From positions 326,762 to 390,761 of the IMG/VR virus record IMGVR_UViG_3300020429_000529: 64,000 nt of DNA; one strand, given 5' to 3'. Source of the stretch: a virus. The notes beneath the pieces were generated by a model that was given only the letters and a program-made list of their open reading frames with translations, did not search any database and was not told where the DNA came from. Positions 8,018 through 58,549 of the stretch are shown in pieces (position 1 is the first letter of the stretch; the number at the start of each line of letters is the position of its first letter). The translations under genes and the position numbers were made by a program.

Positions 8018-8031
8018 TTTAGGAGAATCAG

Positions 8032-8957: not shown

Positions 8958-8976
8958 CTTTGAAAGGAGAGTCGCT

Positions 8977-15873: not shown

Positions 15874-15878
15874 CCTTT

Positions 15879-27972: not shown

Positions 27973-29468
27973 CGAACATCGACTACAAAGATGACGAGCT
28001 ATTCGAAAGCTCTTTCATGTTCTCCAAGATTGGCAAGTGTCTTGTCTCTCTTGAGGGACGTTTTCTCAAGGTAAATCCTGCGCTCTGTTCTATTCTCGGG
28101 TATTCTGAGAAAGAACTGCTTTCGATTACGTTTCAAGAGATCACGCATCCAGACGATCTTGACATAGATGTAAAGCAGGTAAAAAGATGTATAGCAGGAG
28201 AGATATCAACTTATTCTCTTGACAAGAGATACATCAAGAAGAATGGCAAGGTCGTTTGGGCTGAGTTGAATGTTGCAATCACGAAGAGTCCGTCACGGGA
28301 TGACTTCTTTATCGTTGAAGTTGTCAACATTCAAGACAGAAAGACTCAAGAGAAGCTGCTTCTCAAGCATGAGGCATCTCTAAGAGACTACAGAGATAGG
28401 TTGGAGATTGCGCTTGATGCAAGTCAGATAGGTATTTGGCGATGGTATCCCGAAGAGGACAAGCTCGAATGGGATGACCGTATGTTTGAGATCTTTGGAG
28501 TTGAACGAAATGAGTTCACTGGTAAAGTTAATGATTGGCGTCTGACTGTTATCGAAGAAGACAGAGCCAAAGCGTTTTCGTATGTATTGGAAAGCGTACA
28601 GAAGGGTTTGCCATTCGAGACCGAGTTTCGTATCTATCGCAAAGGCGAGGTTCGCTATATCGCTGCCTATGGCCTTCATGACATAGACAGCACGGGCGAA
28701 GTAATCAGCATGATCGGCGCAAACTACGATATTACTGATCTGCGAATCGCTGAACAAAACCTGATACGATCAAACGTAGAACTTGAGAAGTTTGCGTATG
28801 CTGCCTCTCATGATCTCAAAGAACCGCTTCGGACAATCGGCGGTTTTGCTACGTTGTTGAACAGCAATCATAGGGAGAAGCTTGATGAGCAAGGACAGAA
28901 GTTCCTTGACTTCATTCTGCAAGGCTGTCAGAAGATGCAGTCTCTCATTGATAGTCTGTTGAACTACTCGAAGGTTGATAGGAGGCTTACTGAAGGTTTC
29001 CAAGAAGTCGATATGAGGGCAAAAGCAAAGAAGGCTTGCGAGTACCTGATTGCAAAGATTAGCGAGGTTGATGCAGATGTTGTTTGGGAGGAAGATCTAC
29101 CTGTTGTTTGGGCTCATCCCGATCTCATGCTACAAGTTGTTTTGAACCTTGTTCACAACGCTCTCAAGTTCCGTCATCCTGATCGCAAATGCAAGATCAG
29201 CATCAACTGGGAAGATTTGGGGCACTTGTACCGATTCAATATCACAGACAATGGGATCGGCATCGAAGAAGAGTATCAGGAGCAGATTTTCAGCCTGTTC
29301 CAAAGGCTTCATGACAGGTCTATGGAGGGATCAGGTATGGGGCTTGCTCTTTGCAAGAAGATCATAGGAAGCTTCGGCGGTCAGATATGGGTCGAATCCG
29401 AATACGGGAAGGGTTCGAAGTTTAGCTTCACGATTCCAAAGGGGAGGGGAGAAAATGAGGGTAGCTGA
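27969..29468 (+). CDS. PAS-domain sensor histidine kinase
   Basis: ATGA overlap; PAS repeats, H-box HDLKEPLRTIGGFATLL, HATPase_c region with GSGMGLALCKKI. Confidence 0.8.
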   Translation: MTNIDYKDDELFESSFMFSKIGKCLVSLEGRFLKVNPALCSILGYSEKELLSITFQEITHPDDLDIDVKQVKRCIAGEISTYSLDKRYIKKNGKVVWAELNVAITKSPSRDDFFIVEVVNIQDRKTQEKLLLKHEASLRDYRDRLEIALDASQIGIWRWYPEEDKLEWDDRMFEIFGVERNEFTGKVNDWRLTVIEEDRAKAFSYVLESVQKGLPFETEFRIYRKGEVRYIAAYGLHDIDSTGEVISMIGANYDITDLRIAEQNLIRSNVELEKFAYAASHDLKEPLRTIGGFATLLNSNHREKLDEQGQKFLDFILQGCQKMQSLIDSLLNYSKVDRRLTEGFQEVDMRAKAKKACEYLIAKISEVDADVVWEEDLPVVWAHPDLMLQVVLNLVHNALKFRHPDRKCKISINWEDLGHLYRFNITDNGIGIEEEYQEQIFSLFQRLHDRSMEGSGMGLALCKKIIGSFGGQIWVESEYGKGSKFSFTIPKGRGENEGS

Positions 29469-30796: not shown

Positions 30797-33544
30797 ATGC
30801 AAGGTCACGATGACAGCGGAAGGGGCGGAACTCGCGGGGATCTACTGATCCCTCCGGGCTCGTATGCCTATTTCCAGTCAACGCAGAACGGTTCGATTTC
30901 GACGAAAGTCGGACCAACCAATGTCCCCTCGTCGGGTAACGAAAACCCGATCAAGTTCGATCCTCAATCGAGGAGATTCACTTCCTGTACGCCAGACCAG
31001 GCGATGCAGACAACAATTCGCGCAGGCGAGAATGATTACATCATCCTCGAAAATCCCTGTCTTCAGGGCGGCGAACTCGTCTTCCCCGGCACCAACAAAG
31101 ACAAGCTGCCCGAAAACGGCTTGGAGATGGGACGGCGAGTTGTTGTTCATGGACCTGTCTCTTTCGCGCTGTGGCCGGGCCAAGTCGCAACGGTTGTCGA
31201 GGGCCACGCTCTTCGGACCAACGAATACCTCGAACTGCGGGTCTACGACGCCGAAGCTGCGAAGAAGAACTGGTCCGAGGCCTCGGTAGTCGCTGCCTCG
31301 GCAACGACCGATACGGGAGGACAGGGCGGAGGACAGGGCGGTTCAGGCGGGGAGGATGACCAAAACGCTGGCTCTGCGGACGCTACTTCTGCTGACAAGG
31401 CTGGCGCTGCGGTGGTAAGCGGAGAAGTTCCTGACCTTAGAGTCGGTCAGCGGCTCATCATCAAGGGCACGGATGTCAGCTTCTACATGCCTCCGAGCGG
31501 TATCCAGGTTGTTTCCAGCGATGGAGACCGAACCTATGTTCGCAGCGCTGTCTCTCTCGAACTGCTCGAATACACGATCCTTGTTGATGAGTCGGGCGAC
31601 AAGCGATTCGTCCAAGGCCCTGCCGTTGTCTTCCCCGAGCCCACGGAGACTTTCTTCACGAAGAACGACACTCGGAAGTTCCGAGCGATCGAGCTTCAGG
31701 AGCAGGCTGGTCTTCATCTGAAGGCGCTCAAGGATTTCACCGACGAGGGAGGCAAGCAGCGCAAGGCTGGCGATGAATACTTCGTCACGGGCAAGGAACG
31801 ACCCATCTACTACCCGAGAGAAGAGGAAGCGATCGTTCCTTACGCCGAGGGCGAGCGAGTCCACTATGCCGTTGCGGTTCCCAAGGGAGAGGGCCGCTAT
31901 GTCATGGAGAAGGACTCGGGCGAGATCGATACTCGTACCGGACCCGAGATGCTTCTCTGCGACCCGACCGATGAAGTCATCGTTCGCAGGATCCTGACCG
32001 ATCGACAGTGCGAAGATTGGTATCCCGGCAACGATGCCGCTCGACGCTATAACGCCAGTCTGCGATCGATTCAGGAAGCTGCTGGTTCTGCTCGGAGCGA
32101 TGTTGTTTCCGATTCGGTCACTCGGAGAGCGGCAACTAAGGGCGTCAGTTCGTTGAGGTCTATCGCTCGTCGGGGCGAGGGCCTTGAGTCGCTGGCGTAT
32201 GCCGCTGCGGGCGAAGAATCCTTTGGGGCTGCGGAAGAGGCGGGTTCTGCCGTTCTCGAAGAGTTCGAGCGTAGGGGGAACTTCACTCAGCCCAAGAGTA
32301 TTACGCTCGACACCAAGTTCGAGGGCGTGCCGACGATCGAGCTTTGGACCGGCTACGCCGTTATGGTCGTCAACAAGAGCGGCGACCGTCGCATCGAGGT
32401 TGGTCCGACCACTCTTCTTCTCGACTACGACGAATCGTTGGAGATCATGGAGCTTTCGACCGGCAAGCCCAAGTCTACCGACACTCTGCTGCGAACCGTT
32501 TACCTCCGAGTTCAGAACAACAAGGTCTCGGATGTCATCGAAGTCGAGACAAGCGATCATGTTCGAGTCAAGGTCAAGGTTTCGTTCCGAGTCAACTTCG
32601 CTGAGAGCAACCCGAACAACGCTGAAGACAAGACTGACTACAAGACCCGTTGGTTCGCTACCGAGAACTATGTCAAGCTGCTCTGCGACCATGTTCGTTC
32701 TGTTCTCAAGGGCGAGGTCAAGAAGCACTCGATCTCGGAGTTCTACGCCACGGCGACGGCGACGATTCGAGATATCCTTCTCGGCAAGAGAGCGGAAGGA
32801 ACGGGTCGTCCTGGTATGTTCTTCGACGAGAACGGCATGCACGTCGTTGATGTCGAAGTTCTCGCCACCGACATCGAAGATCGAGAGATCAGCGCTTTAC
32901 TGATCGGCGCTCAGCGAGAAGCTGTCGAATCCAACATCAAGGTCGCTGCTGCCAAGCGTCAGCTTGAAACGACGACCAGCATGGAGGATATGGCTCGTCA
33001 AGAGGCCACGGCTCGCGAAGCGACGAAGAAGCATGCTCATGATCTGCAACTCGCTGAGTTCCAGCGAGATCTCACTCGTTCGCTCGATCGGATCAGGTCC
33101 GAACTCGAAACCCATCAATCGAACAAGGAAGTCATCGAGGCTCGCATCGCCAACGGCGACATCGAGGCTCAGGCGGAGCTTGTTCGCGAGAAGGCTCGAC
33201 ACGACCAGTTGATCGAGCAGAAGAAGGCGGAGCAGGAAATCGAACTCGCCAAGCTCAAGGCCGAGGTCGATGCTGTCAAGGAACGCTTCGGCGCTCTCGA
33301 CGACAGCAACCTGCCCGAGATGTTGGCGGTTCTCAGCAGAGAGGACATGCTGACTCGTATCGCTACGGCCTCGTCTTGGCAGACTGTCATCGGCGGTCAG
33401 AGCCTCGACGACGCTCTCGGCGGTATCTTCGGACCTGACTCGCCTGTCGCCAAGATGCTCGCCACGCTCAAGGCTGGCTCCTCGATCGCTCCTGCGGTCA
33501 TCGGCAGCAGTCGAACGGCGGCAAGGGCTGGCAGCGAGGACTGA
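30797..33544 (+). CDS. major vault protein (MVP) homolog
   Basis: 915 aa. The N-terminal LLIPPGSYAYFQSTQNGSISTKVGPTNVP matches the MVP repeat VIRIPPYHYIHVLDQN...VEVGPKTYI; there are several further MVP-type repeats; an SPFH/shoulder-like segment RTVYLRVQNNKVSDVIEVETSDHVRVKVKVSFRVNF; and a long C-terminal coiled coil like the cap helix. Confidence 0.8.
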   Translation: MQGHDDSGRGGTRGDLLIPPGSYAYFQSTQNGSISTKVGPTNVPSSGNENPIKFDPQSRRFTSCTPDQAMQTTIRAGENDYIILENPCLQGGELVFPGTNKDKLPENGLEMGRRVVVHGPVSFALWPGQVATVVEGHALRTNEYLELRVYDAEAAKKNWSEASVVAASATTDTGGQGGGQGGSGGEDDQNAGSADATSADKAGAAVVSGEVPDLRVGQRLIIKGTDVSFYMPPSGIQVVSSDGDRTYVRSAVSLELLEYTILVDESGDKRFVQGPAVVFPEPTETFFTKNDTRKFRAIELQEQAGLHLKALKDFTDEGGKQRKAGDEYFVTGKERPIYYPREEEAIVPYAEGERVHYAVAVPKGEGRYVMEKDSGEIDTRTGPEMLLCDPTDEVIVRRILTDRQCEDWYPGNDAARRYNASLRSIQEAAGSARSDVVSDSVTRRAATKGVSSLRSIARRGEGLESLAYAAAGEESFGAAEEAGSAVLEEFERRGNFTQPKSITLDTKFEGVPTIELWTGYAVMVVNKSGDRRIEVGPTTLLLDYDESLEIMELSTGKPKSTDTLLRTVYLRVQNNKVSDVIEVETSDHVRVKVKVSFRVNFAESNPNNAEDKTDYKTRWFATENYVKLLCDHVRSVLKGEVKKHSISEFYATATATIRDILLGKRAEGTGRPGMFFDENGMHVVDVEVLATDIEDREISALLIGAQREAVESNIKVAAAKRQLETTTSMEDMARQEATAREATKKHAHDLQLAEFQRDLTRSLDRIRSELETHQSNKEVIEARIANGDIEAQAELVREKARHDQLIEQKKAEQEIELAKLKAEVDAVKERFGALDDSNLPEMLAVLSREDMLTRIATASSWQTVIGGQSLDDALGGIFGPDSPVAKMLATLKAGSSIAPAVIGSSRTAARAGSED

Positions 33545-34767: not shown

Positions 34768-35118
34768 GGGGGTGATATGGAATCGACCGAATGATGTAGG
34801 TTGATGATCGCGAGTCGGGGATGCATGCTCAGGCCCCGTTATCAAGGTATGCACAAATTAGTTGCCAACAGCAACACCCTCCGCATGGCTGCTTAATCAG
34901 CCTGCTCGCAACCCGAAGACACCGATATTCGGGAAGCGAAAGACCATCGGGTTAGGCATCGTCTTCAACGCCTGAGGATTCGATGACCGAAACTAAAAGG
35001 GCTGCTCCGAAGGTCATGCTGTCGCTGGCAGGACTGAGGCTAAGATAAATCAGCGAATACACTCGTAGAGGTCTCTGCTGACCCATTCGACACCGGGGTT
35101 CGAGTCCCCGCACCTCCA
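34768..35118 (+). ncRNA. ssrA: tmRNA (ssrA), tag reading frame ANSNTLRMAA*
   Basis: The 5' end GGGGGUGAUAUGGAAUCGACCG resembles the tmRNA consensus GGGGCUGAUUCUGGAUUCGACGGG. The 3' end ccgggguucgaguccccgcaccucca pairs with the 5' acceptor with G3:U70. The internal ORF gcc aac agc aac acc ctc cgc atg gct gct taa gives the tag. Confidence 0.8.
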
Positions 35119-35126
35119 CTTCAGAA

Positions 35127-49053: not shown

Positions 49054-49980
49054 ATGTTCAATTGGACAAAGCCGTTTATCGGTCTGGTATTTGTCTTGTT
49101 GTCGGGTTGTTCGACAATGCAGGCATCGGATCGGCAGCAAACATCAACTGAGCGATACGCAATCCGAACCAGGATTATCGTTGAAGAAATGGGCGATCGT
49201 TCTGCTCGGTCCTATGGCGACATCGTTCGAGACATTGAAAGAACCGAGCAGATCTATAACGGACTTGGAATGGAGTTCATTGTCGTTGAGATGGCGCTCG
49301 CTCGACCGAATCAAGAGTGGTATGCCTACGCAGCGCAAGATGCAGCGAAGTACGAAGACACGCTGAGTATCTACTACACTTTTTGGCGTCCTGCGACAGG
49401 TCGATCGATGTCTCCGATTATTGGCATGGGATCGTTACCATTTGGCACGCCTTCTCTTGGCGTTTTCATTTATGGCCCCGCCATGGATAACAACTCACTG
49501 GCCCATGAGATCGGGCACTACTTCGGTCTACTTCACACATTTGAGGGCGGAATCAACGGAGACTTCGTGAATGATACGCAATCCCGAGAAGAGTATGCCG
49601 ATCAGAATGGAGAAGAAGCAGATTACTACAGGTATGGAAATGTGATGAACTATCACTACCCGAACCTGTTGCCTTCAGTAACGGCAGGGCAAGAGGAAAG
49701 GATGCGATTCTATCTCGGAAAGCATCGTAAGAATCACGTTCTTGCCGATAGTGAAATCAGGCAAAAGCCGCAGCAATCCCCTGAGATTGTGATAATCTTT
49801 GAAGAAGCGGAGTCAGATGATGTCAAAGAAGATACGGATTTGGACAATCGGGTCGGAGACAAAGCCAGCATCGGAGGAGGACGTTCAGGACTTCGAGAGC
49901 CGACTGAAAGAGGCGTTCAAGACGCCTTCACCAGACGGTTCTTTCGATGTGACTGTTCCCTATCCTGTTCATCTGACTGA
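49054..49980 (+). CDS. zinc metallopeptidase (M43/pappalysin-like HExxHxxGxxH) lipoprotein
   Basis: CGAGGAGG RBS; signal peptide + lipobox LLSGC; AHEIGHYFGLLHTF zinc-binding motif. Confidence 0.75.
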   Translation: MFNWTKPFIGLVFVLLSGCSTMQASDRQQTSTERYAIRTRIIVEEMGDRSARSYGDIVRDIERTEQIYNGLGMEFIVVEMALARPNQEWYAYAAQDAAKYEDTLSIYYTFWRPATGRSMSPIIGMGSLPFGTPSLGVFIYGPAMDNNSLAHEIGHYFGLLHTFEGGINGDFVNDTQSREEYADQNGEEADYYRYGNVMNYHYPNLLPSVTAGQEERMRFYLGKHRKNHVLADSEIRQKPQQSPEIVIIFEEAESDDVKEDTDLDNRVGDKASIGGGRSGLREPTERGVQDAFTRRFFRCDCSLSCSSD

Positions 49981-50206
49981 GGCATCGTCAGATGTTTTCT
50001 GCTCAGGTTCGTTTGATATAACAGGCGATTTGTCGAACACAACAAACGCCATGATCTCTTATGGATCAGTCAGCATGAACGGTTCGGGAGCGGGTACTTG
50101 GACAACCAACTCGGGCGCACCAGGTGGCATCTTCATCAGCGGTATACAGCAGGTTGTTGAAGACAAGAAGGATGAGCCCGAAGATCCAAGGATGAGACCT
50201 CTGTGA
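49817..50206 (+). CDS. hypothetical protein (overlaps the protease 3' end in another frame)
   Basis: ATGATG with AAGCGGAG RBS; the 164-nt overlap makes this uncertain. Confidence 0.3.
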   Translation: MMSKKIRIWTIGSETKPASEEDVQDFESRLKEAFKTPSPDGSFDVTVPYPVHLTEASSDVFCSGSFDITGDLSNTTNAMISYGSVSMNGSGAGTWTTNSGAPGGIFISGIQQVVEDKKDEPEDPRMRPL

Positions 50207-50517
50207 TTCCGGATCCAGTTCTTCCAATCTTCGATCAACCATTGATTCCTCAGCTTGAGTTCGTTGAACTTCCGCCGAGAGAATGGCAACTGCCCAAAGA
50301 AGGCGAATGGGCCAGGTTCCTCTTTCCTCATGCAGGACAAGACGATCCTCAAAGAGAAGTTGTCGGAAAGATACTCAAGTATCAATGGATAGGCTCAACA
50401 AGCATGGGCGTTGTCCGTATGTTCTTTCGCGAACAAAACACAACCCACTACCAGTTGACTGTTGTCAATCCGGCAGACGGCTATGAGCGAGTTTCTGCAC
50501 CTGAGGAGGACGTATGA
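50203..50517 (+). CDS. hypothetical protein
   Basis: ATGA overlap; 104 aa. Confidence 0.45.
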   Translation: MIPDPVLPIFDQPLIPQLEFVELPPREWQLPKEGEWARFLFPHAGQDDPQREVVGKILKYQWIGSTSMGVVRMFFREQNTTHYQLTVVNPADGYERVSAPEEDV

Positions 50518-50822
50518 GCGCGGTACAATGTCAGACGAATGGACAGCCCTATACTCCAACAGCGGACGAGTTGCTTGCAAGACGAATCGCAAGTGAGCGA
50601 GTTCGGGTCGTTGATGGCAAGGGAGTCTATGGCGTCTATATTCTCAACAAGAACCACGGCGAAGCTGAATGGCAAGAAGTAGCAACGTACAAGTATGGCG
50701 ATGCAGCAGATGATTTGGAGATTGAGCTACGGCAGACGATCAAGGAAGCCGTGTTTGATACTCTGACAGAGATGAGAAATGGGAATACGAATCAAGAAGG
50801 CGCTGGTTTGGGCTCTGCCTGA
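50514..50822 (+). CDS. hypothetical protein
   Basis: ATGA overlap; 102 aa. Confidence 0.45.
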   Translation: MSAVQCQTNGQPYTPTADELLARRIASERVRVVDGKGVYGVYILNKNHGEAEWQEVATYKYGDAADDLEIELRQTIKEAVFDTLTEMRNGNTNQEGAGLGSA

Positions 50823-51567
50823 TGTTCAGGTTGAAAATCTGCGCATCGTTGATCCTCGATTCAGCGAGAGCTTTCTCGCGGACGAACAAAGCAACGACGA
50901 TCGCCACGAATGGAGAAATCGAGCAACCTTTGCTCAGTTCCTTGACTGGTTGAAGAGCAACAAGGACGAAGCGGTAGCGGTTCTTGGTTCTCAGGATCCC
51001 AGCAAGTTTGGACACAGCGCTCAGATCTCGTTCATCCTTCATAGTCATGGTAAAGATGGACCTGTTGAAAGAACAGCAAACGATTTCATCTTTGAGCCTG
51101 TCTATGATACGGAGTTCGGTATCCCAGAAGTCTTCGGCTTCGTTGCCGGTCTTGAGAAGAACTACATCCGAAGAGACGACACTCTCGATTACTACACTGA
51201 GGCGAAGTTTACGCCCAAGCATGAATCTCCGCCAAACTGGATCGATTGGCAACCATGCGGCATCTATCCCTGGTTAGGGATGGTTCATATGCCGATTGGC
51301 GAACAACCGGCGTTCGCAAATGAAGAGCAAGGTCGAGACTGGCAAATGCTAATGCCTGCCGAGTATCAGATGATGGTCGGCGAGTTTGCTGAAAAGCACA
51401 GCCCCTCCATGGGGTACGAAATTGCTGAATACCTGAAAATCCATTATCGCCCCATTATCCCGCCTGCGATCGTCCTTTGGACGCATTGGCTCGGCGATCG
51501 ACTATGGGCTGATTGGAACTCTACAGTCAACCAGCTACGACCTGCTATGTATACCTATTGGAGTTAG
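50779..51567 (+). CDS. hypothetical protein
   Basis: 262 aa; overlaps the upstream gene by 44 nt. Confidence 0.5.
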   Translation: MGIRIKKALVWALPDVQVENLRIVDPRFSESFLADEQSNDDRHEWRNRATFAQFLDWLKSNKDEAVAVLGSQDPSKFGHSAQISFILHSHGKDGPVERTANDFIFEPVYDTEFGIPEVFGFVAGLEKNYIRRDDTLDYYTEAKFTPKHESPPNWIDWQPCGIYPWLGMVHMPIGEQPAFANEEQGRDWQMLMPAEYQMMVGEFAEKHSPSMGYEIAEYLKIHYRPIIPPAIVLWTHWLGDRLWADWNSTVNQLRPAMYTYWS

Positions 51568-51786
51568 CGCTGACAGAAGTTAGAAACATCAGGATTTGTA
51601 AGCTTCCATACCAGAAGCATCCGTTCGTTCACGGAGAACGAAACGGCAAAGATGTCTGGTTATTGGATGATGGAACGTGGACAGAAGAAGACGGACATCC
51701 AAGAGCGTCGATACCTCTCTATGCAGATACCGATCTAATGCCTCGCTCTACAAGTTCTACACGAGAAAAAGAGGAATGAAAGACTC

Positions 51787-52419
51787 ATGGATTATTTTAC
51801 CGCAGACCCGCATTTCGGGCACGCAAACATCATCAAGTTTTTGAATCGCCCATTCGCCTCGGTTGAGGAAATGGACGCAACGATTCTTGAGAACATCAAC
51901 AAGCAAGTAGGAGTCGATGACCGATTGTTTGTCATCGGAGATTTCTGCTGGCACAACAGACAAAACGAGTACCTGAATCGGTTGACTTGTCGGAACGTTG
52001 TTCTGATTCGAGGCAATCACGATTTCAAGGGCAACTACGATCTCCGCAAGAGCCACAAGATACAGGGCTATGAACAGTTTGCGGGCGTCTATGACCATTA
52101 CGAACTCAAAGTAACGGTCAAGGGGCAGCCGCAGTTCATTGTCATGTATCATTACCCGACTCTTGAATGGAACCGTTGGCATCATGGAAGCTGGCATCTC
52201 TTTGGTCATGTTCATGGCAAGCGATGTGGAGACTTCGAGAATGAGCTTGCGATCGATGCCGGCGTTGATGTTCATGACTTCAAGCCGCTCAGCGTCAATG
52301 ACGTTGCGAGAATCATGTCTGAGAAAGACTGGGAGAGTCCGAAGGTTCGGTGGGCCAAGTCGAACGATCTTTGGGTCAAAGACGGCGAGGTCGAGAACCG
52401 AGCGATGACTGATCGATAA
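51787..52419 (+). CDS. metallophosphoesterase (calcineurin-like)
   Basis: AGAGGAA RBS; FTADPHFGH...VIGDFCWHN...GNHD...GHVH motifs. Confidence 0.8.
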   Translation: MDYFTADPHFGHANIIKFLNRPFASVEEMDATILENINKQVGVDDRLFVIGDFCWHNRQNEYLNRLTCRNVVLIRGNHDFKGNYDLRKSHKIQGYEQFAGVYDHYELKVTVKGQPQFIVMYHYPTLEWNRWHHGSWHLFGHVHGKRCGDFENELAIDAGVDVHDFKPLSVNDVARIMSEKDWESPKVRWAKSNDLWVKDGEVENRAMTDR

Positions 52420-52535
52420 TCGCTGTTTGCGGGCACCTCCCGATTGCTGGTGACGCTTGAATAGGCTATCATGAGTCTGCGGATAAATCGCGCAGATTCA
52501 TGTTTTACCTGCGCACTTGACAAGGCGATACTCAG

Positions 52536-52826
52536 ATGAGGGAAACGATTGTTGTCAGCGGCGAACCTGATGCAGAGCAGAAGCGCTGTTACGATTGTTT
52601 CTACATGCGAGGGGCCTGTTCTTGGTGGTGCAAAAACGAAGAAGCCATCAAGTTCAGAGGAACCAGAATCCCTGGAGTGAGGGAATGCAAGTTCTGGAAA
52701 CCGGCTCGAAAAGTGTCTGATCTCAGCATGGGCGAACGGTTAGCCTTCCATCTTGACGTACTTGGGCTTGGTTTTGTGCCACTGACGATCGAAGCGTCGG
52801 AGCAAACAGAGACAACGCCTCAATAG
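52536..52826 (+). CDS. Cys-rich hypothetical protein
   Basis: 96 aa with CYDCFYMRGACSWWC; its TAG stop is the U8-A9-G10 of the suppressor tRNA. Confidence 0.4.
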   Translation: MRETIVVSGEPDAEQKRCYDCFYMRGACSWWCKNEEAIKFRGTRIPGVRECKFWKPARKVSDLSMGERLAFHLDVLGLGFVPLTIEASEQTETTPQ

Positions 52827-52888
52827 CTCAATTGGCAGAGCAGCGGGCTCTAACCCCGCGGTTGGGGGTTCAAGTCCCCCTTGAGGCA
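52817..52888 (+). tRNA. amber suppressor tRNA (anticodon CUA, reads UAG)
   Basis: gcctcaa/ttgaggc acceptor, D-arm tagctcaattggcagagca (same as tRNA-Lys(CUU) at 3359), anticodon arm gcggg-CUCUAAC-cccgc, T-arm gggggTTCAAGTccccc. Confidence 0.8.
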
Positions 52889-52892
52889 TTCG

Positions 52893-53060
52893 ATGAAGAA
52901 GACAGTTGTCAAAGTCGAAGTTGAGATCTGCTACGATCCTGATGCAGATGCTCCGATTGAGTTCGAAAACGAACGAGACATCGTGGAGCATTTCGCTTCT
53001 TGCGTCATCGGCAATGATTTTGCGTCAGTTTCAATTCTCTACGAGGGCGAGGAGTTTTAG
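52893..53060 (+). CDS. small hypothetical protein (55 aa)
   Basis: ATG 5 nt after the tRNA; acidic sequence that reads better than the overlapping ORF-track ORF 52906-53151. Confidence 0.4.
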   Translation: MKKTVVKVEVEICYDPDADAPIEFENERDIVEHFASCVIGNDFASVSILYEGEEF

Positions 53061-53062
53061 TT

Positions 53063-53419
53063 ATGGGCTTCAGCTATTCAGTTTACTGCGGACCTGCGAT
53101 CGTCATTCTCGACAATGGCGAAAAAGGGCCGAGTTGGTACGATGTCTCTGAAGCTACAGATGAACGCCTGTCTGAAAGCAGGATTGAAATCCGCAAAGAC
53201 AACGAGCCTCGCTACTTCATCCCGAACATCGGAGGCTACGGGAAAGACATCGACCCGAGAGAAAACACCGATGTCTCTGTCGTTGAGATCGATAAGATCG
53301 AAAAAGACATCAACAAGTTCGAATCAGAGTTCAGCGCTGATATCGAGAAGGTCAAGAGCATGTTCCCAGGAGAAGGTCGGGTCGCCATCAAGTGGGTGAT
53401 CCTCAGTGATGCGAGATGA
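53063..53419 (+). CDS. hypothetical protein
   Basis: GAGGAG RBS; 118 aa. Confidence 0.55.
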   Translation: MGFSYSVYCGPAIVILDNGEKGPSWYDVSEATDERLSESRIEIRKDNEPRYFIPNIGGYGKDIDPRENTDVSVVEIDKIEKDINKFESEFSADIEKVKSMFPGEGRVAIKWVILSDAR

Positions 53420-53826
53420 CATACGACCCGACCCAACCTGCGGACATCCATAATCCTCTGCCTCAGTCGCAATGGCCGATCAGAGAGGGGAAGGCGGTTG
53501 TTTGTATCGATCCTCGTTCGGATGATCGACTGACTATTGTTGACGAGGCAAAAGTCAGGTTCTACAATCCTGCAACGCATGGCAGTATGGTGGTTACAAA
53601 GGGTAGGCCCTTTTTTACCATTGAGTTTGGTGGAACTGCTCAGGTTGTTGACGCCAACAATGTCTTTCCTGACAACCAGACAGGTCGCAAGCAGTTGTTG
53701 AGCCGCCGAGCCCATTTGCTGAGAGATCTCGCCCAGAGGAAGCGAGAGGCTGCGCAGCGCATGCTGGATAGGGCGGACGAGTTGGACAGAGAAGCAATCC
53801 TCAATGAGAAATCGAGCCGAGCATGA
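53416..53826 (+). CDS. hypothetical protein
   Basis: ATGA overlap; 136 aa. Confidence 0.5.
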   Translation: MTYDPTQPADIHNPLPQSQWPIREGKAVVCIDPRSDDRLTIVDEAKVRFYNPATHGSMVVTKGRPFFTIEFGGTAQVVDANNVFPDNQTGRKQLLSRRAHLLRDLAQRKREAAQRMLDRADELDREAILNEKSSRA

Positions 53827-54233
53827 GCGACCAGATCAACTTCCGTATGCCTCGCGTCTTTGTTGGAGGCCCTTGGACCAAACCTGATCCTTTGGCGAAT
53901 GTCAATGCAACGCTCAAGTTGCGATCCGATATTCAAGCCGCAGGCACGGTCCATACGGTTTGCTCGATGTGCGATACCTTCCTTTGGGGGACGGTCTACC
54001 CGAGCAACTACGAAGAGCAAACGATGTTCTGCTTGCATGAACTGGCAAGCTGCGACATCGCCGTTTTCCGTCGAGGCGAATCTTCGGGTAGGGATCGAGA
54101 GATTCAGATCTGCAACGACCTCGGTATTCCAGTTTTCTGGGAGGGCGAACTGCGGGGCTTTTGGGATCTGGTCAAGGAGTACCAGAACGGCGAGAAGACG
54201 CCCAAGTGGGCAATGCAACTGCAAAGGGTCTAA
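53823..54233 (+). CDS. hypothetical protein (possible nucleoside 2-deoxyribosyltransferase-like fold)
   Basis: ATGA overlap; PRVFVGGPW...DIAVFRRGESSGRDREI. Confidence 0.45.
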   Translation: MSDQINFRMPRVFVGGPWTKPDPLANVNATLKLRSDIQAAGTVHTVCSMCDTFLWGTVYPSNYEEQTMFCLHELASCDIAVFRRGESSGRDREIQICNDLGIPVFWEGELRGFWDLVKEYQNGEKTPKWAMQLQRV

Positions 54234-54236
54234 ACG

Positions 54237-54920
54237 ATGGGAGCCACAGCCGTAGCCAGTTCGAACGATGTCAAGAGCGTCATGGTCGGAAAGAACATGG
54301 CTCCTGTTGGCGTGGCTCCGTCCATTGTCCTCGAAGACCCCAAGTACGCCCGCAACGTTTCGCAGATCGTCCGTCTGGCGTCTGGATATGACATCAATCA
54401 GGTCTTTTTCACGGGCAATCGAGTCAGCTTGACAGACCCGACAAAGAACCTTGATGGGCGAAGCGGTTCTCGCACGAAGAAGGGAGCGGGCAAGGCTCGT
54501 TTGCCTCGCGAGGAGCGGATGAAGGGTTATCAGAAGGTTGACATCTGTCATCATGACAGGCCCTTTGATTGTTTCTCATCAGGTATTCCTGTCATTGGCA
54601 TCGAGCTTCGAGAAGGCGCTCTGCCTCTGCATCAGTTTGAGCATCCCGAAGAAGCCATCTATGTCTTTGGACCCGAAGACGGCAGCATCAATCGACTGTC
54701 TCGACAGGTTCATCAGTTTGTCGTTATCCCGGTTGCGCATTGTTTGAATCTTGCCACAGCGGTTTCGACAATTCTTTGGGATCGCAAGCGTCAGCTTATC
54801 GAGCGAGGTTTGCTACCTGATCTTACGATGGATGAACTGCTTGTTGGAGACCGAGCAAGTCTTCGCATGCAGGACTTTGAGTCTGATGACATGCTGTTTG
54901 ATGGAGGGGGCAAGCGTTGA
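54237..54920 (+). CDS. SpoU/TrmH-family RNA 2'-O-methyltransferase (SPOUT)
   Basis: YVFGPEDGSINRLSRQVHQFVVIPVAHCLNLATAVSTILWD matches the SpoU C-terminal knot motifs. Confidence 0.7.
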   Translation: MGATAVASSNDVKSVMVGKNMAPVGVAPSIVLEDPKYARNVSQIVRLASGYDINQVFFTGNRVSLTDPTKNLDGRSGSRTKKGAGKARLPREERMKGYQKVDICHHDRPFDCFSSGIPVIGIELREGALPLHQFEHPEEAIYVFGPEDGSINRLSRQVHQFVVIPVAHCLNLATAVSTILWDRKRQLIERGLLPDLTMDELLVGDRASLRMQDFESDDMLFDGGGKR

Positions 54921-55633
54921 TTCTACATCTGGTACGACATGGAGAGTCGCAAGCCAATACGGGAGAAATCCCTCATGGCAGTATCGGCGACCACAAGGTT
55001 CCCCTGACCGAGAAGGGCAAACAGCAGGCTCGTTTCCGAGGCGCTGCGCTTCGAGATGCTGGTTTTGGTCTTGACGAAGATTACCTGATCTATTGTTCTC
55101 CGTATCGTCGGGCGAGAGAAACTCTTGCCTGCATACTTGAAGGTAACGGGATTGCCGATGCTTCGAAGGTCACGGTCTACGAAGATCCTCGACTACGAGA
55201 AGTTGACCATGGCTATAGCGATGTAGCAGCGCAAGATGCGATGCGCGCTGAACATGGTTGGTTCTATTATCGATTCAAGGAAGGCGAATCGCCTGCTGAT
55301 TGTTTCGATCGTTGCTGCACGTTCCTTGAGAGTCTAAAACGTCAGGTCTATCGTAAGTTTCCTCCTGTTCCGGCAAGTTTGCGTTTGAGTCTTAGCGGCC
55401 CCGATCGTCCTCGGCGAGTCCTGATTGTCTCTCATGGGCTTACGCTTCGGTGCTTTGTTACTCGCTACATGCACTTGACTGTTGAACAGTTCGAGACTTT
55501 GGCAAACCCGCATAACTGCGATCTGATTACTATTACTCCTCATGAAGGAATGAAAGACCCGCAGTTTATAAGCGGTCGATGGGGTATTGAAGGTCTTCGA
55601 TTTAGGGGCTCTTCGAACAGGAGCGAAGCATGA
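54917..55633 (+). CDS. histidine phosphatase (phosphoglycerate mutase family)
   Basis: TTGA-overlap TTG start; LVRHGESQAN...SPYRRARET...IVSHG motifs. Confidence 0.8.
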   Translation: MILHLVRHGESQANTGEIPHGSIGDHKVPLTEKGKQQARFRGAALRDAGFGLDEDYLIYCSPYRRARETLACILEGNGIADASKVTVYEDPRLREVDHGYSDVAAQDAMRAEHGWFYYRFKEGESPADCFDRCCTFLESLKRQVYRKFPPVPASLRLSLSGPDRPRRVLIVSHGLTLRCFVTRYMHLTVEQFETLANPHNCDLITITPHEGMKDPQFISGRWGIEGLRFRGSSNRSEA

Positions 55634-56028
55634 AGCTCTTTGTCCCTCCTCTTAAGACCGAACTCAAGCTAACGTCTGCATGGACGTTTGACCTGCATCA
55701 CGAACATCGCAACAAGAAGATGTTCGAATTCATGAACCTCGATTACACTAACCCTTGGCAATGGAGAAGGGGGCATGACGATCGTTGGGGTCGTTTGCCT
55801 GATCCTGTTTCTATCAAGTTGCCGAAGGGTACTGTTCTGGTTGTTGATCGAATCTACATTCGTCAGCAAGCGGAGGACTTCGACAGCATCACGTTCCGAA
55901 TCAAGAGTTTTCCGGGCAAATCTCCGAGCGGCAAGAAGACTGCTCGTTTCTGGGCAAAGCTCGATGACTGTAATGGTATAAACGTTCAAGTTCTTACCGG
56001 CGAAGAATCGCCCAAGGAGAAGGTATAA
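55630..56028 (+). CDS. hypothetical protein
   Basis: ATGA overlap; 132 aa. Confidence 0.5.
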   Translation: MKLFVPPLKTELKLTSAWTFDLHHEHRNKKMFEFMNLDYTNPWQWRRGHDDRWGRLPDPVSIKLPKGTVLVVDRIYIRQQAEDFDSITFRIKSFPGKSPSGKKTARFWAKLDDCNGINVQVLTGEESPKEKV

Positions 56029-56032
56029 GCCC

Positions 56033-56323
56033 ATGAAAATTCAAGCCGCTAATGCCAAGACTCTTCTTGACCTGCAAACAGAGAAGAGTGTTGTAGAGGG
56101 CTATGTCAAGAAGCTGCAAGAGCTTCTTGATTCTGATGGAGAGTTCTCTATCTGCGTCAGACACGACAGATACTACGGCAGCGAGCGCGATTGCAGTTTT
56201 GACCACTACAACTACGGCATGACATTCCCGAGAGAATCTCGCTTCATTCAGCCTATGATCGAACACTGGAAGGCAAAGCTTCGGGAGGTCGAACAGAAGA
56301 TTGATCGATTGGCGGTGGTTTGA
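56033..56323 (+). CDS. hypothetical protein
   Basis: 96 aa. Confidence 0.5.
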   Translation: MKIQAANAKTLLDLQTEKSVVEGYVKKLQELLDSDGEFSICVRHDRYYGSERDCSFDHYNYGMTFPRESRFIQPMIEHWKAKLREVEQKIDRLAVV

Positions 56324-56916
56324 TGGCGGTCTTGACTGAACAACGGCTCAAGGAGCTTCGTCTGGTTTCTAATCGAGTTGTACGAGCGAAGGACTTTGCT
56401 CGTACAGCCCATCAGGGGCAGACAAGAGATGACGGCGCGGAATACTTCTCTCATCCGTCGAGAGTTGTTGATCGAGTTCGAGGTTACTCGGGCGACGAGA
56501 ACACCATCTGCGCCGCATGGTTGCATGATACGATCGAGGATTGCGAGGGCGTTACTTCGGAGATGCTGCAGGATCTCTTCGGTTCTCAGGTTACGAGCAT
56601 CGTTGAAGAACTGACGCTCCCTGAGATTCCTTCTAAGATCAGTCCTCCTCATCGGTGGCAATACAAGACGGATCTGCTCGTCAAAAAGGCAGGCACGATG
56701 TCTAATGAGGCGAAGCTGGTCAAGATTTGCGACCGCATTGACAACTTGAATTCTGCGATGACGGATTGGAAGCCCCGTCGTCTTGTCCGTTACGCTATTC
56801 AGGGCTGCAAGATGCTGGAAGCTATGCGCCCTCTCGATCCGATGCATCAGCAAGCTGCAAACGACCTGCTCTTTCTGATCGCTCAGATCTTGATCGAAAA
56901 CCAACAGTCCTCGTAG
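56323..56916 (+). CDS. HD-domain phosphohydrolase (RelA/SpoT-type HD)
   Basis: ARTAHQGQTRDDGAEYFSHPSRVV...AAWLHDTIED motifs; its TAG stop is the tRNA's U8-A9-G10. Confidence 0.7.
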   Translation: MAVLTEQRLKELRLVSNRVVRAKDFARTAHQGQTRDDGAEYFSHPSRVVDRVRGYSGDENTICAAWLHDTIEDCEGVTSEMLQDLFGSQVTSIVEELTLPEIPSKISPPHRWQYKTDLLVKKAGTMSNEAKLVKICDRIDNLNSAMTDWKPRRLVRYAIQGCKMLEAMRPLDPMHQQAANDLLFLIAQILIENQQSS

Positions 56917-56982
56917 CTCAGTATGGCCAGAGCCGCCGACTCTAAATCGGTGTGAGCGCGGGTTCGAGTCCCGCCGAGGACG
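56907..56982 (+). tRNA. amber suppressor tRNA (anticodon CUA), second copy with a different body
   Basis: gtcctcg/cgaggac acceptor, D-stem gctc/gagc, anticodon arm gccga-CUCUAAA-tcggt, T-arm gcgggTTCGAGTcccgc. Confidence 0.75.
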
Positions 56983-56998
56983 TTCATGGAGGAACAAC

Positions 56999-57508
56999 AT
57001 GCTGTCTGTTTTGGCTGAACTTGAAGATGAGACTTTGCCTCGTTTGTTGATGGACCCGAACTGGTCAAGTCTCGATATCAATCATGAAAACCCTCGGGTA
57101 GAGAGGGTTTGGCGACAGTGGGGCGATTATCGCATTTGTCTGCATCGTATTCATCAATGCGCTGAAGACGAGGCTCATTTCCATCCTCATCCTTGGCCGT
57201 CCGCTATGCGGATTATCTCCGGTCATTACGAGATGGGTATCGGTTATTCCGAAACCGATCAGCCTCCTCCATGCGCTGCTGTCGTTCGAGGTTCGGACGG
57301 CATGACATACGAGATGACTGACCCGAATGGATGGCATTATGTCCGTCCTTTGAGCCGAGAGGTTATCTCGCTGATGATTACCGGCAAAAGATGGGGTCGA
57401 ACGGATCTGCTCAAGCCGCAGGGTCTCAAGCCTCTGTCGGAAGATCGATTGCATGAGATCATCGATATCTTTGCTCGGATCTATGTCAGCGAGGATATGA
57501 TGGAGTGA
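56999..57508 (+). CDS. hypothetical protein
   Basis: TGGAGGAAC RBS; 169 aa. Confidence 0.55.
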   Translation: MLSVLAELEDETLPRLLMDPNWSSLDINHENPRVERVWRQWGDYRICLHRIHQCAEDEAHFHPHPWPSAMRIISGHYEMGIGYSETDQPPPCAAVVRGSDGMTYEMTDPNGWHYVRPLSREVISLMITGKRWGRTDLLKPQGLKPLSEDRLHEIIDIFARIYVSEDMME

Positions 57509-57518
57509 CGGGAGCCTT

Positions 57519-57911
57519 ATGGATGACCTGCCAGATCTTGTTGCTAATCGCTATTCGGAAGGAGAGATCCAGGCTTTCCTGTGGTTCTTGTTTGGCTGTC
57601 TCATCCTCGTTATCGTTGCGTATGTCATAGCCGCTTTCATTAGAGCGTCTACCGAGAGTCCTTTTCAGTTTCTCGTTCGACCGATCAAGAAGACCAGACT
57701 AAGAAGAGTCAGCGAAGACGAACTCAAGAGACCGTTTACAGCAGGAACAAGGAAGAGCATTCGTTCGGTTGTCTGGGGATTCATTAAGCAGGTTTGGCCT
57801 CGGCGTCAAAAGAAATCGCGCCGACCGAAGAAGATCAGCAAGACAGAGTATCCTCGTTGCATAAACCAATCGTTTCCAGAAGAGAAAAGGGCAGATGATG
57901 ACAGGTCATGA
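57519..57911 (+). CDS. membrane protein (one TM helix, basic C-terminus)
   Basis: FLWFLFGCLILVIVAYVIAAFI. Confidence 0.45.
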   Translation: MDDLPDLVANRYSEGEIQAFLWFLFGCLILVIVAYVIAAFIRASTESPFQFLVRPIKKTRLRRVSEDELKRPFTAGTRKSIRSVVWGFIKQVWPRRQKKSRRPKKISKTEYPRCINQSFPEEKRADDDRS

Positions 57912-58455
57912 AGAAGGCACAAGGGTTGTGGCTGTTAGAAACGGCAACAAGGATGCGGTCTATATTTTCGGGTACGGTACTTATGTTGGCAATCGCCGAC
58001 TCCCTCCTGAAATGCCTTCTATCTTCGGGACCAATGAAGAGTCCATGCGCAAGATCATGACGCAGGAATATCTCGGCAAGCCAAAGCAAAGCATCTCTGA
58101 GATACTTGATCGTTCCAGGATGACCGAACCTGCTCATATCGCTGAATATGATGCGGCGATCGAGAGAGAAGAAACAGAAAAGGCCGCAGGCACGTTTGTC
58201 TACAGCGAGAAAGATATCGAGACCATGATTGATAGGTCTCGTCGAAACCCCTGCATCGAACTGGACAGCGGAGAGATTGTTTGGGGCTGCGAATGCTGGT
58301 GGGGTCCAGAAGAGGATTTCAAGAAGTCCATCGGCGACAAGCCTGTTGAAGTGGTCAGTTTGCAGGATTTCCGCCGTGAAGTTAGAGAAGCTGCCGCAAC
58401 CAGGCAACTCGAACCAGAGCAGGATGACGATCAGCAACCGAAAACCGAATCCTGA
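57895..58455 (+). CDS. hypothetical protein
   Basis: 186 aa; start overlaps the upstream gene end. Confidence 0.5.
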   Translation: MMTGHEEGTRVVAVRNGNKDAVYIFGYGTYVGNRRLPPEMPSIFGTNEESMRKIMTQEYLGKPKQSISEILDRSRMTEPAHIAEYDAAIEREETEKAAGTFVYSEKDIETMIDRSRRNPCIELDSGEIVWGCECWWGPEEDFKKSIGDKPVEVVSLQDFRREVREAAATRQLEPEQDDDQQPKTES

Positions 58456-58549
58456 AATCTGTCTTGCCACTGACGCTCCGAGCGCTACAGTAAGAGCATG
58501 TAGGCTATAAGCCTTTTGTGTTCCGAGACATAGATGAAGGAGAGATACG

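Follow-up and report, generated by a model that had tools for sequence, protein, structure and literature searches.

Which genes are served by the amber-suppressor tRNAs that some phages encode? The question is raised here by a stretch of 64,000 nt (hereafter the window) from the IMG/VR record IMGVR_UViG_3300020429_000529, which encodes two tRNAs with the anticodon CUA, called Sup1 and Sup2, and a gene for a PTH2-like hydrolase that is interrupted by two in-frame TAG codons. Jumbo phages with suppressor tRNAs for which no target was identified have been described previously (PMC5852040, PMC6102473, PMC8504454). The PTH2-like gene, locked by an early stop codon to which the linked tRNAs are cognate, is a candidate for the conserved target of such orphan suppressors. 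An initial annotation of the window, made from the DNA letters, had taken the two tRNAs and a TAG-interrupted gene 2.5 kb away as signs of either programmed UAG read-through or reassignment of the stop codon.

Exact matches of its proteins place the window at approximately 273-337 kb of a contig of about 500 kb, for which there are two independent assemblies of 498,610 bp (ENA ERZ17089788, NODE_1289088) and 502,461 bp (ERZ25074452, ctg12106) and fragments of which also occur in samples from TARA Oceans. With its flanks, the readable sequence amounts to ~77 kb, or ~15% of the genome, which we treat as that of a marine megaphage of ~500 kb. Several genes in the window match PHROGs, and a megablast search with positions 44000-64000 against the phages in GenBank gave no match.

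Two CUA tRNAs and a PTH2-like gene with in-frame TAG codons

The tRNA genes were identified with ARAGORN and with the Rfam tRNA model RF00005, for which the gathering score is 29. ARAGORN placed Sup1 and Sup2 at exactly the coordinates given in the initial annotation (Table 1), and the Rfam scores were 69.4 and 58.4 bits, respectively. Both tRNAs form canonical cloverleaves in the ARAGORN structures, with G18G19 in the D-loop and a T-loop of the type TTCRAGT, and their 7-nt anticodon loops contain U33, the CUA anticodon and a purine at position 37. The anticodon stem consists of 5 bp in Sup1 and was drawn with 6 pairs by ARAGORN in Sup2, which is otherwise canonical. Sup2 is 100% identical across six independent contigs, including the TARA fragments, and the TAG stop of the preceding gene, for a SpoT-like HD protein, overlaps with the 5' end of this tRNA. 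Sup1 matches the two ~500 kb assemblies at 100% and 99%, with a single-base gap at an unlocated position of the 101-nt query in one of them. From their anticodons and intact structures, we infer that Sup1 and Sup2 are functional amber suppressors encoded by the phage, which would be charged and would decode UAG.

The two tRNAs are 70% identical to each other, in line with the earlier observation that their bodies differ. The D-arm that Sup1 had been noted to share with the tRNA-Lys(CUU) at 3359 is indeed identical over 21 nt (TAGCTCAATTGGCAGAGCAGC). The derivation of Sup1 from that tRNA by one anticodon change was rejected, since the tRNA-Thr(CGU) at 14000 has the same D-arm and since the acceptor, anticodon and T stems all differ. 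Overall, Sup1 is 73% identical to the tRNA-Lys and 71% identical to the tRNA-Thr. The class I form of Sup1 and Sup2 excludes bodies of the Tyr-, Leu- and Ser-type; for the assignment of an isotype, comparison with the tRNAs of E. coli was uninformative and similarity to the other tRNAs in the window is not diagnostic.

Two other identities were considered for these tRNAs. The pyrrolysine tRNA has a short D-loop without G18G19, a 3-nt variable loop and a 6-bp anticodon stem. The label “tRNA-Pyl” in ARAGORN is merely its name for a CUA anticodon, and this identity was rejected, as Sup1 and Sup2 have D-loops with GG, standard T-loops and variable regions of 4-5 nt. No pylS or pylBCD domains turned up among the ~35 window proteins scanned, which do not comprise every open reading frame (ORF), or among the Pfam labels of the flanks. 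Owing to the three G-C pairs beside its anticodon loop, Sup1 was also considered as an initiator-like suppressor that starts translation at UAG; this was rejected because its G1-C72 end is paired and because an ATG with a Shine-Dalgarno (SD) sequence at the proper distance always precedes the stop.

The TAG-interrupted gene that had been announced 2.5 kb from the suppressors is located 2.5 kb downstream of Sup2, in an otherwise empty gap of 575 nt. Its ATG at 59508 is followed by the codons GGA TTC ACA and then by the first TAG, here called the gate. The promoter-like site in front of it (Table 1) is the best of its type within positions 52300-60500. The gene is identical in the two independent ~500 kb assemblies. 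The read-through product matches the Pfam family PTH2 (PF01981) over residues 16-95, a region that spans the second TAG (E-value 3e-4, 21.4 bits), whereas the distal half in isolation scores 12.5 bits. A further match is to phrog_1866 (3.6e-7, residues 10-101), and the fragment between the two TAG codons matches this PHROG by itself. Some of the homologs carry a precomputed match to PF01981.

The closest homolog in the databases, P0001, is equally long, likewise starts with MGFT and shows 73% amino acid identity, and the DNA that encodes it (L010) keeps TAG at both gate positions. The two genes differ by a dS of 1.11 with a dN/dS ratio of 0.18 overall, 0.25 for the 41 codons between the TAG codons and 0.15 after the second TAG. 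Their upstream DNA is unalignable except for an SD sequence at the same position. Judging from this pattern of substitutions, the stretch between the TAG codons is under selection at the protein level, which excludes a pseudogene and implies that the first TAG must be decoded. We conclude that translation of the gene very probably depends on suppression of the stop codon, which upholds the part of the initial annotation that suggested programmed read-through. The glutamines in P0001 at both TAG positions had looked like a sign that Gln is inserted and were rejected as such, as the DNA has TAG there and the Q was supplied by the gene caller of the record, which had picked the amber-recoded table for this relative of 1.3 kb.

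A structure was modeled with AF2 for P0001 rather than for the window protein itself (pLDDT 84.3, pTM 0.76). In a Foldseek search against the PDB, the top 14 matches were all Pth2 structures (among them 2zv3, 3erj, 1q7s, 1wn2, 1xty, 1rlk and 2gax), with a probability of 1.00 and TM-scores of 0.58-0.76. The model thus predicts the PTH2 fold for the protein, and the family is a divergent, PTH2-like branch. Invariant or near-invariant residues in the family alignment include Q31, H34, A35, E84, D86, T92 and T96. Of the two TAG codons, the first is part of the leader, which is not conserved, and the second is part of a variable loop that is modeled with low confidence, and the homologs show variable residues in the alignment column of the second TAG. 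The PADLOC protein models gave no match for the PTH2-like protein, for the three types of partner proteins described below or for the neighboring genes.

Table 1. Features of the window, with two loci outside it, and gates of related genes in other phages. Positions are those of the window unless a locus is named.
Feature	Position	Strand	Description
Sup1, amber suppressor tRNA	52817-52888	+	72 nt; anticodon CUA; loop CUCUAAC; discriminator A73; class I; 4-nt variable region; CCA not encoded
SpoU-family (TrmH/TrmL-type) RNA 2'-O-methyltransferase	54237-54920	+	Pfam SpoU_methylase 2.6e-11; weak TrmL match; between the two suppressors
HD_4 / SpoT-RelA hydrolase-domain protein	56320-56916	+	phrog_990 1.6e-29; TIGR00691 9e-21; abuts Sup2
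Sup2, amber suppressor tRNA	56907-56982	+	76 nt; anticodon CUA; loop CUCUAAA (classic suppressor loop); discriminator G73; class I; CCA not encoded
Putative sigma-70-type promoter	59436-59463	+	TTGACA-N16-TACAAT; 11/12 match to consensus; ~45 nt 5' of ATG
Shine-Dalgarno sequence	59494-59501	+	AAAGGAGG; 6 nt 5' of the ATG at 59508; read from the sequence
Amber-gated PTH2-like hydrolase gene	59508-59891	+	ATG, GFT, TAG, 42 codons, TAG, 79 codons, TAA (at 59889); read-through product 127 aa
Gate stop 1, in-frame TAG, codon 5	59520-59522	+	context ACA TAG GAC; next base G
Gate stop 2, in-frame TAG, codon 48	59649-59651	+	variable loop after helix 1, just before the conserved HPHLV strand; next base G
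Partner gene, 154 aa	59905-60369	+	motif S-R-W-G-Y-H-P-C-D-Y-E-T-F; directly downstream of the gated gene
Long tRNAs	3111-3195, 3832-3921, 7935-8018, 8867-8958, 11435-11518, 21861-21945		
Cell-like genes	27882-29468, 41161-42423, 49027-49980; L007:612-1832, 3738-5405		
Gated gene, GAP32			gate MAQ-TAG; Sup-tRNA 2.8 kb away
Gated gene, ME3			gate MT-TAG; CUA tRNA 0.45 kb away
Gated gene, fHe-Yen9-04			gate MSH-TAG; Sup-CTA 3 kb away
Gated gene, Arash			gate ML-TAG; CUA tRNA 1 kb away, GenBank label tRNA-Phe
Gated gene, RsoM2USA			gate ML-TAG; one CUA suppressor in the genome (PMC8504454)
Gated gene, XacN1			gate MK-TAG, 4 codons 5' of the annotated ATG; two CUA suppressors, no target found by the authors (PMC5852040)
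Gated gene, Xoo-sp13			gate MKK-TAG, 4 codons 5' of the annotated ATG; no suppressor in the examined flank
Gated gene, pT24			gate MK-TAG; no suppressor in the examined flank
Gated genes, LR756511 and LR756500			CUA tRNA present
Gated gene, LR756501 (735-kb phage)			second internal TAG in the same loop as in the window; two tandem CUA tRNAs
Gated genes, LR756504 and LR745206			no suppressor within 20 kb on either side

Recurrence of the gate and its suppressor across lineages

To place the gene in a broader context, lineages with PTH2-like genes were gathered from IMG/VR (by a family-alignment search and a second scan), from the phages in GenBank and from cellular contigs. The family comprises 3,596 representative clusters at E <= 1e-3, many of which are gene calls that are truncated at the N-terminus. 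The first search of IMG/VR gave 15 loci with a GC content of 37-64%, all of which have an ATG, a leader of 1-10 codons, a stop codon and an in-frame domain, and nearly every one also has a tRNA cognate to the stop, often within 1 kb. In total, this design was observed in about 40 lineages with a GC content of 24-68%, with a leader of 1-10 codons and a gate at codons 2-11 in nearly all of them and, in most, an SD sequence in front of the leader ATG. No lineage shows a change of frame between leader and domain, and the ribosome must therefore escape the gate by read-through and not by a +1 frameshift. The gate is TAG in 39 lineages, TGA in one and TAA in none, even in AT-rich genomes.

A suppressor tRNA cognate to the gate was seen for 33 of the ~40 gated lineages, either in the examined flank, often at less than 1 kb, or according to the genome paper. 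The one lineage with a TGA gate (L017) has a UCA tRNA 0.9 kb away and is the sole clear TGA/UCA case. The window and LR756501 each combine two TAG codons with two CUA tRNAs; the latter belongs to the huge phages of 462-735 kb that are among the carriers. The cellular carriers include a Gemmataceae contig of 1.64 Mb, Frigoriglobus, other Planctomycetota and a metagenome-assembled genome (MAG) of Nitrospiraceae; in these the gene has typical cellular neighbors, a TAG gate and an adjacent CUA tRNA. The second scan of IMG/VR added three amber-gated loci with CUA tRNAs beside the gene, and family members from other clades that adjoin UUA (ochre) or UCA (opal) suppressors. Gates cognate to these suppressors were considered for the UUA- and UCA-associated clades (L058, L061 and L064) and discarded as ambiguous in AT-rich sequence.

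The gate was also recovered without reference to the family and proved specific to the PTH2-like gene. A blind scan of 656 kb for an SD sequence and ATG, up to 10 codons, a stop and a long ORF without a nearby start gave 14 matches for TAG, three for TGA and one for TAA. The PTH2-like gene accounted for 12 of the 14 matches to TAG, which is the rarest of the three stop trinucleotides. In every lineage, the gate is followed by a purine (27/27 in the main count, with which the later ones agree), as compared to 5/15 for ordinary terminal TAG codons in the window (p ~4e-7), and a purine at this 3' position reportedly favors amber suppression (Bossi 1983; Miller and Albertini 1983). The anticodon loop YYCUAAA is present in 18 of 22 linked amber suppressors. 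Apart from this loop the tRNAs are diverse: the 23 linked suppressors have A (15), G (6) or U (2) as the discriminator base, their acceptor stems vary and their median pairwise identity is 0.65. Since neither the leader with the first TAG nor the loop with the second is conserved, the inserted amino acid would be irrelevant, and the bodies of the suppressors are therefore expected to differ between lineages while the CUCUAAA loop is kept.

Ungated members of the family were found in the RaK2 group, where none of the tRNAs beside the gene is an intact suppressor, and in Aeromonas phage 65, a divergent member. RaK2 is the one ungated lineage for which the tRNA region was examined. It contains a weak tRNA (L041:35542-35617, labelled 'tRNA-OTHER' pseudo in GenBank) with 30 bits and an 11-nt anticodon loop (AUGUGUAUCUA), which could be a decayed suppressor. 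Another unusual tRNA (L015:10430-10502) is located directly downstream of a MGFT-TAG-gated gene and has an apparent 8-nt anticodon loop (UCUCUAAC) that contains CUA, which may be either an expanded-loop suppressor or an assembly indel. A 173-kb IMG/VR contig (L062) has two in-frame TGA codons inside the domain at ~2400-2800, one of which is aligned with a Trp in its relatives, and UCA and CUA tRNAs beside the gene; it is probably a genuinely TGA-recoded phage.

In the GenBank records, the gated gene is left unannotated, cut to an internal start or split, as in L027 (GAP32_397), L032 (fHe-Yen9-04, 289139-289450), L034 (RsoM2USA), L033 (Arash gp84c), L052 (pT24 BPT24_235) and L026 (XacN1 ORF364). 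The CUA tRNA of Arash is mislabelled as tRNA-Phe (L033, 49176-49247). Annotation pipelines thus systematically miss or cut the gated gene, and at least one of the tRNAs has been given a wrong label.

Function of the gate and competing explanations

The chances are about even, in our estimate, that the PTH2-like gene is the dedicated target of the suppressors, with an output of hydrolase that is coupled to the capacity for read-through. The gene would be transcribed from its own consensus promoter, and translation would start at the ATG behind the SD sequence. At the UAG codons 5 and 48, release factor 1 (RF1) would terminate translation unless a charged suppressor tRNA decodes the codon, and the amount of hydrolase would follow the competition between suppressor and RF1, that is, the capacity for UAG read-through. 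The enzyme would act as a tRNA-ester hydrolase that recycles peptidyl-tRNA from drop-off or ribosome rescue after read-through; alternatively, it may keep the charged suppressor in check. Either way, more suppression would bring more hydrolase, in the manner of prfB, in which an in-frame UGA adjusts the synthesis of RF2 to the activity of RF2. The window also encodes a tmRNA, which fits the theme of rescue. The decoding by the co-encoded suppressors, the substrate of the enzyme and the logic of the feedback are all inferred from sequence, and the view that coupling or feedback to the suppression level is the purpose of the gate is finely balanced.

A more far-reaching and tentative view, possible but rather doubtful, is that the suppressor tRNA, the stop-gated hydrolase and a partner protein (or a fused HD phosphoesterase) constitute an autonomous and horizontally mobile homeostat of read-through. 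The hydrolase would then act specifically on the esters of its own suppressor tRNA, and the cassette would both install and limit a controlled read-through of stop codons in a cell with the standard code. There is a realistic chance that the cassette is a distinct, mobile code-modulating element. The homeostat, if true, would be a previously unrecognized class of natural element that modulates the genetic code, and would explain why suppressors are found in standard-code phages and in some bacteria.

Several observations weigh against a coupling between the suppressors and the gated gene. The decoding of the gate by Sup1 and Sup2 is suggested by linkage and covariation, and the covariation consists of a single clear TGA/UCA case. 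In L061 there is an upstream TAG and yet a UCA tRNA beside the gene, and the UUA clade is ambiguous as well. Seven gated lineages have no suppressor in the examined flank. In the TAG-gated lineage of L023 and L024, a tRNA-Met(CAU) at 9889-9965 fills the slot directly upstream of the gene that is usually taken by the CUA tRNA, with no suppressor within 10 kb on either side. Conversely, L050 is ungated yet adjoins a CUA tRNA. An ATG is located 3-4 codons past the gate in XacN1, Xoo-sp13 and L039, so that some initiation may be independent of suppression. The Pfam score of 21.4 bits for the window protein is below the gathering cut-off of 23, and the gated lineages share a phylogeny, so that they are not independent and the p-values overstate the significance. 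Finally, efficient suppression would lengthen the products of the ~20% of phage genes with a terminal TAG, and the window shows no enrichment of backup stops near the terminal TAG codons, only a weak bias towards C after the stop. This bias (C after 9/15 TAG stops as compared to 15/57 TAA and TGA stops in window genes, p 0.03) may reflect an avoidance of suppression-prone contexts at genuine TAG stops.

The alternative that fares best, which we consider somewhat unlikely, is that the gate is a safety lock or timer. It would delay a potentially harmful or stage-specific hydrolase until the own tRNA of the phage or cassette has been transcribed, processed and charged, which is a feed-forward and not a feedback arrangement, and it would also block expression in the wrong cell. 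The job of the enzyme would then be unrelated to what suppression entails and might be ribosome rescue after an attack by a host anticodon nuclease or a shut-off of host translation. The evidence from the gate and its linkage applies to this explanation as much as to coupling, and the strong promoter of the host type implies that control must act after transcription. Iyer et al. (2021, PMC7824862) assign the PTH2 of jumbo phages to ribosome rescue and the repair of tRNAs, the fusion of an HD-type phosphoesterase in both orders (XacN1 and pT24) suggests repair of tRNA ends, and synthetic amber-gated feed-forward circuits operate in this manner (PMC7969014). However, a lock or timer does not account for the gating of one enzyme family in both phages and the chromosomes of Planctomycetota, nor does it explain that ungated members still adjoin suppressor tRNAs. 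A pure timer could use any gene, and a chromosomal cassette has no infection cycle that would need one.

It is improbable that the leader is instead an independent mini-ORF, such as a regulatory upstream ORF or a bar-like minigene, behind which re-initiation or a downstream start yields the domain without suppression. In that case the suppressors would have other targets or roles: they might serve C-terminal extensions, act as decoys for anticodon nucleases or disturb termination in the host. Minigenes of 2-5 codons, such as lambda bar, generate peptidyl-tRNA, which is the substrate of Pth, and a leader of this type would link the leader to the hydrolase by a different logic. The ATG codons shortly past the gate and the seven loci without a suppressor, both mentioned above, also fit a mini-ORF. 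Re-initiation does not, however, require the single frame that leader and domain share in all ~40 lineages, and in many of these the stretch of 17 to more than 100 codons past the stop, well into the conserved domain, is free of ATG, GTG and TTG. The use of TAG in 39 of 40 lineages, even at 24-30% GC where TAA would be expected, and the one case of TGA/UCA covariation also argue against it. In the window and in LR756501, moreover, the domain itself contains a second TAG, which comes after the conserved VQxxHA motif, and in the window gene the 41 codons that precede it have a dN/dS ratio of 0.25.

The second possibility raised by the initial annotation, a reassignment of TAG as in genetic code 15, is not supported in the ~77 kb that were read, in which the code is otherwise the standard one. 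A crude gene finder based on codon usage gave 72 candidate genes in the window, and TAG ends ~15 of them (~21%). The in-frame extension past the stop has a median of 12 codons for TAG, 12 for TGA and 15 for TAA, and the extensions show no coding signal. Junctions flanked by potential coding sequence on either side are no more frequent for TAG than for TAA and TGA. Two such junctions were examined as candidates for read-through and rejected. At 62382, two ORFs of 200 and 96 aa are in one frame, but the 200-aa protein is full-length in an end-to-end match to phrog_11575 (positions 1-182 of 189), so that this TAG is a true end, and the second ORF has its own ATG; the junction at 18127 overlaps a tRNA-Ser. 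Gap-based and pattern-based scans found no other TAG-containing gene in the 64-kb window, and none was found in the flanks of the other loci. Of the many conserved genes with in-frame TAG codons that reassignment would predict, a single one was thus identified in 64 kb, and reading TAG as sense gave no specific gain. The stop-to-stop ORF coverage under alternative codes is itself non-discriminating, as dropping any stop raises it; with TAG read as sense it changed from 0.677 to 0.679 in LR756501, which is no gain, and the same was true for related huge-phage loci.

A reassignment across the genome or in late genes, as in the Lak and crAss-like phages, with the window as an early region in standard code and the gated gene as one of many recoded ones, is accordingly a very improbable explanation. 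Suppressor tRNAs are typical of recoded phages, in which recoding can be limited to the late genes (bioRxiv 10.1101/2021.08.26.457843), the part of the genome that was read is small, and the gene caller chose an amber-recoded table for L010. Against this, TAG behaves as the other stops in the window, with one end verified by a profile, and the cassette is present in cellular chromosomes and in cultured phages for which the original studies took UAG as a stop codon (PMC5852040, PMC8504454). Decay or chance, that is, a pseudogene beside incidental mutant tRNAs, is hardly credible: one substitution turns CAG, AAG or GAG into TAG, the 45 other tRNAs in the window make mutant copies plausible and the gene is unannotated in many GenBank records, but the retention of both TAG codons at a dS of ~1.1 and an omega of 0.18, the same architecture in ~40 phage and bacterial lineages, the intact SD sequence and promoter and the optimized suppressor loops effectively refute it.

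Neighboring genes and relation to known systems

The gene directly downstream of the gated gene is one of three types of partners. The first is the family with the RWGxHPC motif, which includes the gene at 59905-60369 and also follows the PTH2-like gene in L013, L014, L017, L030 and L040. The second is a separate small family at six IMG/VR loci. The third is an HD/HDIG-type domain, which is encoded by its own gene in GAP32, ME3, fHe-Yen9-04 and Arash and is fused to the N-terminal end of the hydrolase in XacN1 and Xoo-sp13 and to the C-terminal end in pT24. The partner in the window, for which the alignment is shallow, had no match in Pfam, PHROG, PADLOC and NCBIfam, and its AF2 model (pLDDT 68) had no fold match. 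In the Planctomycetes-type loci L039, L040 and L048, the PTH2-like gene also ends in TAG, and in L040 (10001-10708) this terminal TAG directly abuts the in-frame ATG of the partner, such that read-through would fuse the two proteins.

The SpoU gene and the HD_4 gene near the two tRNAs (Table 1) may belong to the system. Homology of the latter, a SpoT-like gene, to the HD-type partner of XacN1 and GAP32 was rejected, since it gave no alignment to the N-terminal domain of the XacN1 protein. A neighboring protein of 259 aa had no relatives in the IMG/VR scan. Just past the 169-aa gene that follows Sup2, the TARA loci L004 and L006 differ from the window (57508-58455) in that genes of 130, 77 and 111 aa replace a gene of 186 aa.

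ARAGORN identified 46 tRNAs and one tmRNA (34768-35119, tag peptide ANSNTLRMAA) in the window. All of the tRNAs except Sup1 and Sup2 are located in an array at 1093-26111, which contains 44 tRNAs, or 45 with one that was found only by Rfam (15800-15874), all on one strand. No tRNAs for Leu, Pro, His, Ile, Asp or Glu were found in the window, inside which the array starts, and a CysRS gene is located just upstream (L007:8507-9943). Six tRNAs of isotypes that usually are class I (Lys-UUU, Asn, Arg-UCG, Arg-UCU, Gly-UCC and Cys) have lengths of 84-92 nt with apparently long variable arms or inserts, and the insert AGCGAAAGCTCAT is common to the tRNAs for Lys (3111) and Gly (11435). A tRNA-like gene at 1093-1163 has a 2-nt “anticodon” in a 6-nt loop according to ARAGORN and scores 42 bits with Rfam.

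The window further encodes a homolog of the Major Vault Protein (MVP) of 915 aa (30797-33544; MVP_shoulder 1.7e-25 and Vault repeats) and a protein of 552 aa with PARP-catalytic and WGR domains (44620-46278), which together recall the MVP/vPARP pair of eukaryotic vaults. Relatives of the MVP homolog, with 35-38% identity, were found only in the huge phages LR756500-503 (462-735 kb). Other cell-like genes encode a PAS histidine kinase, a phosphate-selective-porin-like protein, an M43-like metallopeptidase, a sigma-70 factor and a flotillin/Band_7 protein.

In the literature searched, the coverage of which is incomplete, we found no prior description of a stop-gated PTH2-like gene linked to suppressor tRNAs. 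An analysis of read-through at the ends of genes cannot detect a candidate target that is gated in its leader. The arrangement can be tested in cultured carriers, namely Arash (Salmonella), GAP32 (Cronobacter), ME3 (Acinetobacter), fHe-Yen9-04 (Yersinia), XacN1 (Xanthomonas) and RsoM2USA (Ralstonia). The chromosomes of Gemmataceae would be cellular genomes with an amber-suppressor gene in an otherwise standard code.

A related system is that of the recoded crAss-like and Lak phages, in which TAG is read as Gln (code 15) and a phage tRNA(CUA) likewise decodes in-frame UAG codons in a host with the standard code (Ivanova 2014; Borges 2022; Peters 2022). For these, a role in temporal or translational control has also been suggested. 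However, recoded phages have tens to hundreds of mostly late genes with many TAG codons and have largely dropped TAG as a terminator, whereas ~20% of the genes end in TAG here and the target is one small, non-structural gene with the stop at a fixed position after the start, which is also found in cellular chromosomes. Orphan suppressors are also encoded by jumbo phages with the standard code, which have large sets of tRNAs: XacN1 has two CUA tRNAs, RsoM2USA has one and Atu_ph07 has a UCA tRNA. The authors of the XacN1 study could not find a target for the suppressors (PMC5852040), and the papers on RsoM2USA (PMC8504454) and Atu_ph07 only speculate about it. Both XacN1 and RsoM2USA carry the gated gene, and PTH genes of Atu_ph07 were not retrieved by our searches. 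The presence of PTH2 in jumbo phages is known, but the early stop and the linkage to suppressors were not reported there (Iyer et al. 2021, PMC7824862); the family described here is below the Pfam threshold for PTH2, and the gene is cut or omitted in the records of GAP32, fHe-Yen9-04, RsoM2USA, Arash and pT24.

The autoregulation of prfB (RF2) is similar in that an early in-frame stop in the gene of a translation factor makes the product dependent on how the stop is decoded. The ribosome escapes from that stop by a +1 frameshift without a dedicated tRNA, while the present gene would be read through in frame with the aid of a co-encoded suppressor. In prfB the product feeds back on decoding, and here a feedback is suggested by the class of the enzyme and by the constant linkage to suppressors, including those of ungated members. 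The read-through proteins A1 of Q-beta (UGA) and gag-pol of MuLV (UAG) provide another parallel, as a conserved in-frame stop is read through with a set efficiency to yield a functional protein. In these the product is a C-terminal extension made with near-cognate host tRNAs and an RNA context, in contrast to stops at codons 2-11 or within the domain, with an own tRNA, and nothing functional would be made here without read-through.

Engineered counterparts exist as well. In synthetic amber circuits (the leak dampener in PMC7969014 and the control by suppressor tRNAs in PMC13276491), a target with an early amber codon is dependent on a suppressor that is supplied. The pairs of leader and tRNA described here could serve synthetic biology as ready-made, naturally tuned orthogonal translational switches, and they differ from these circuits in being an apparently natural and conserved equivalent with a fixed cargo gene.

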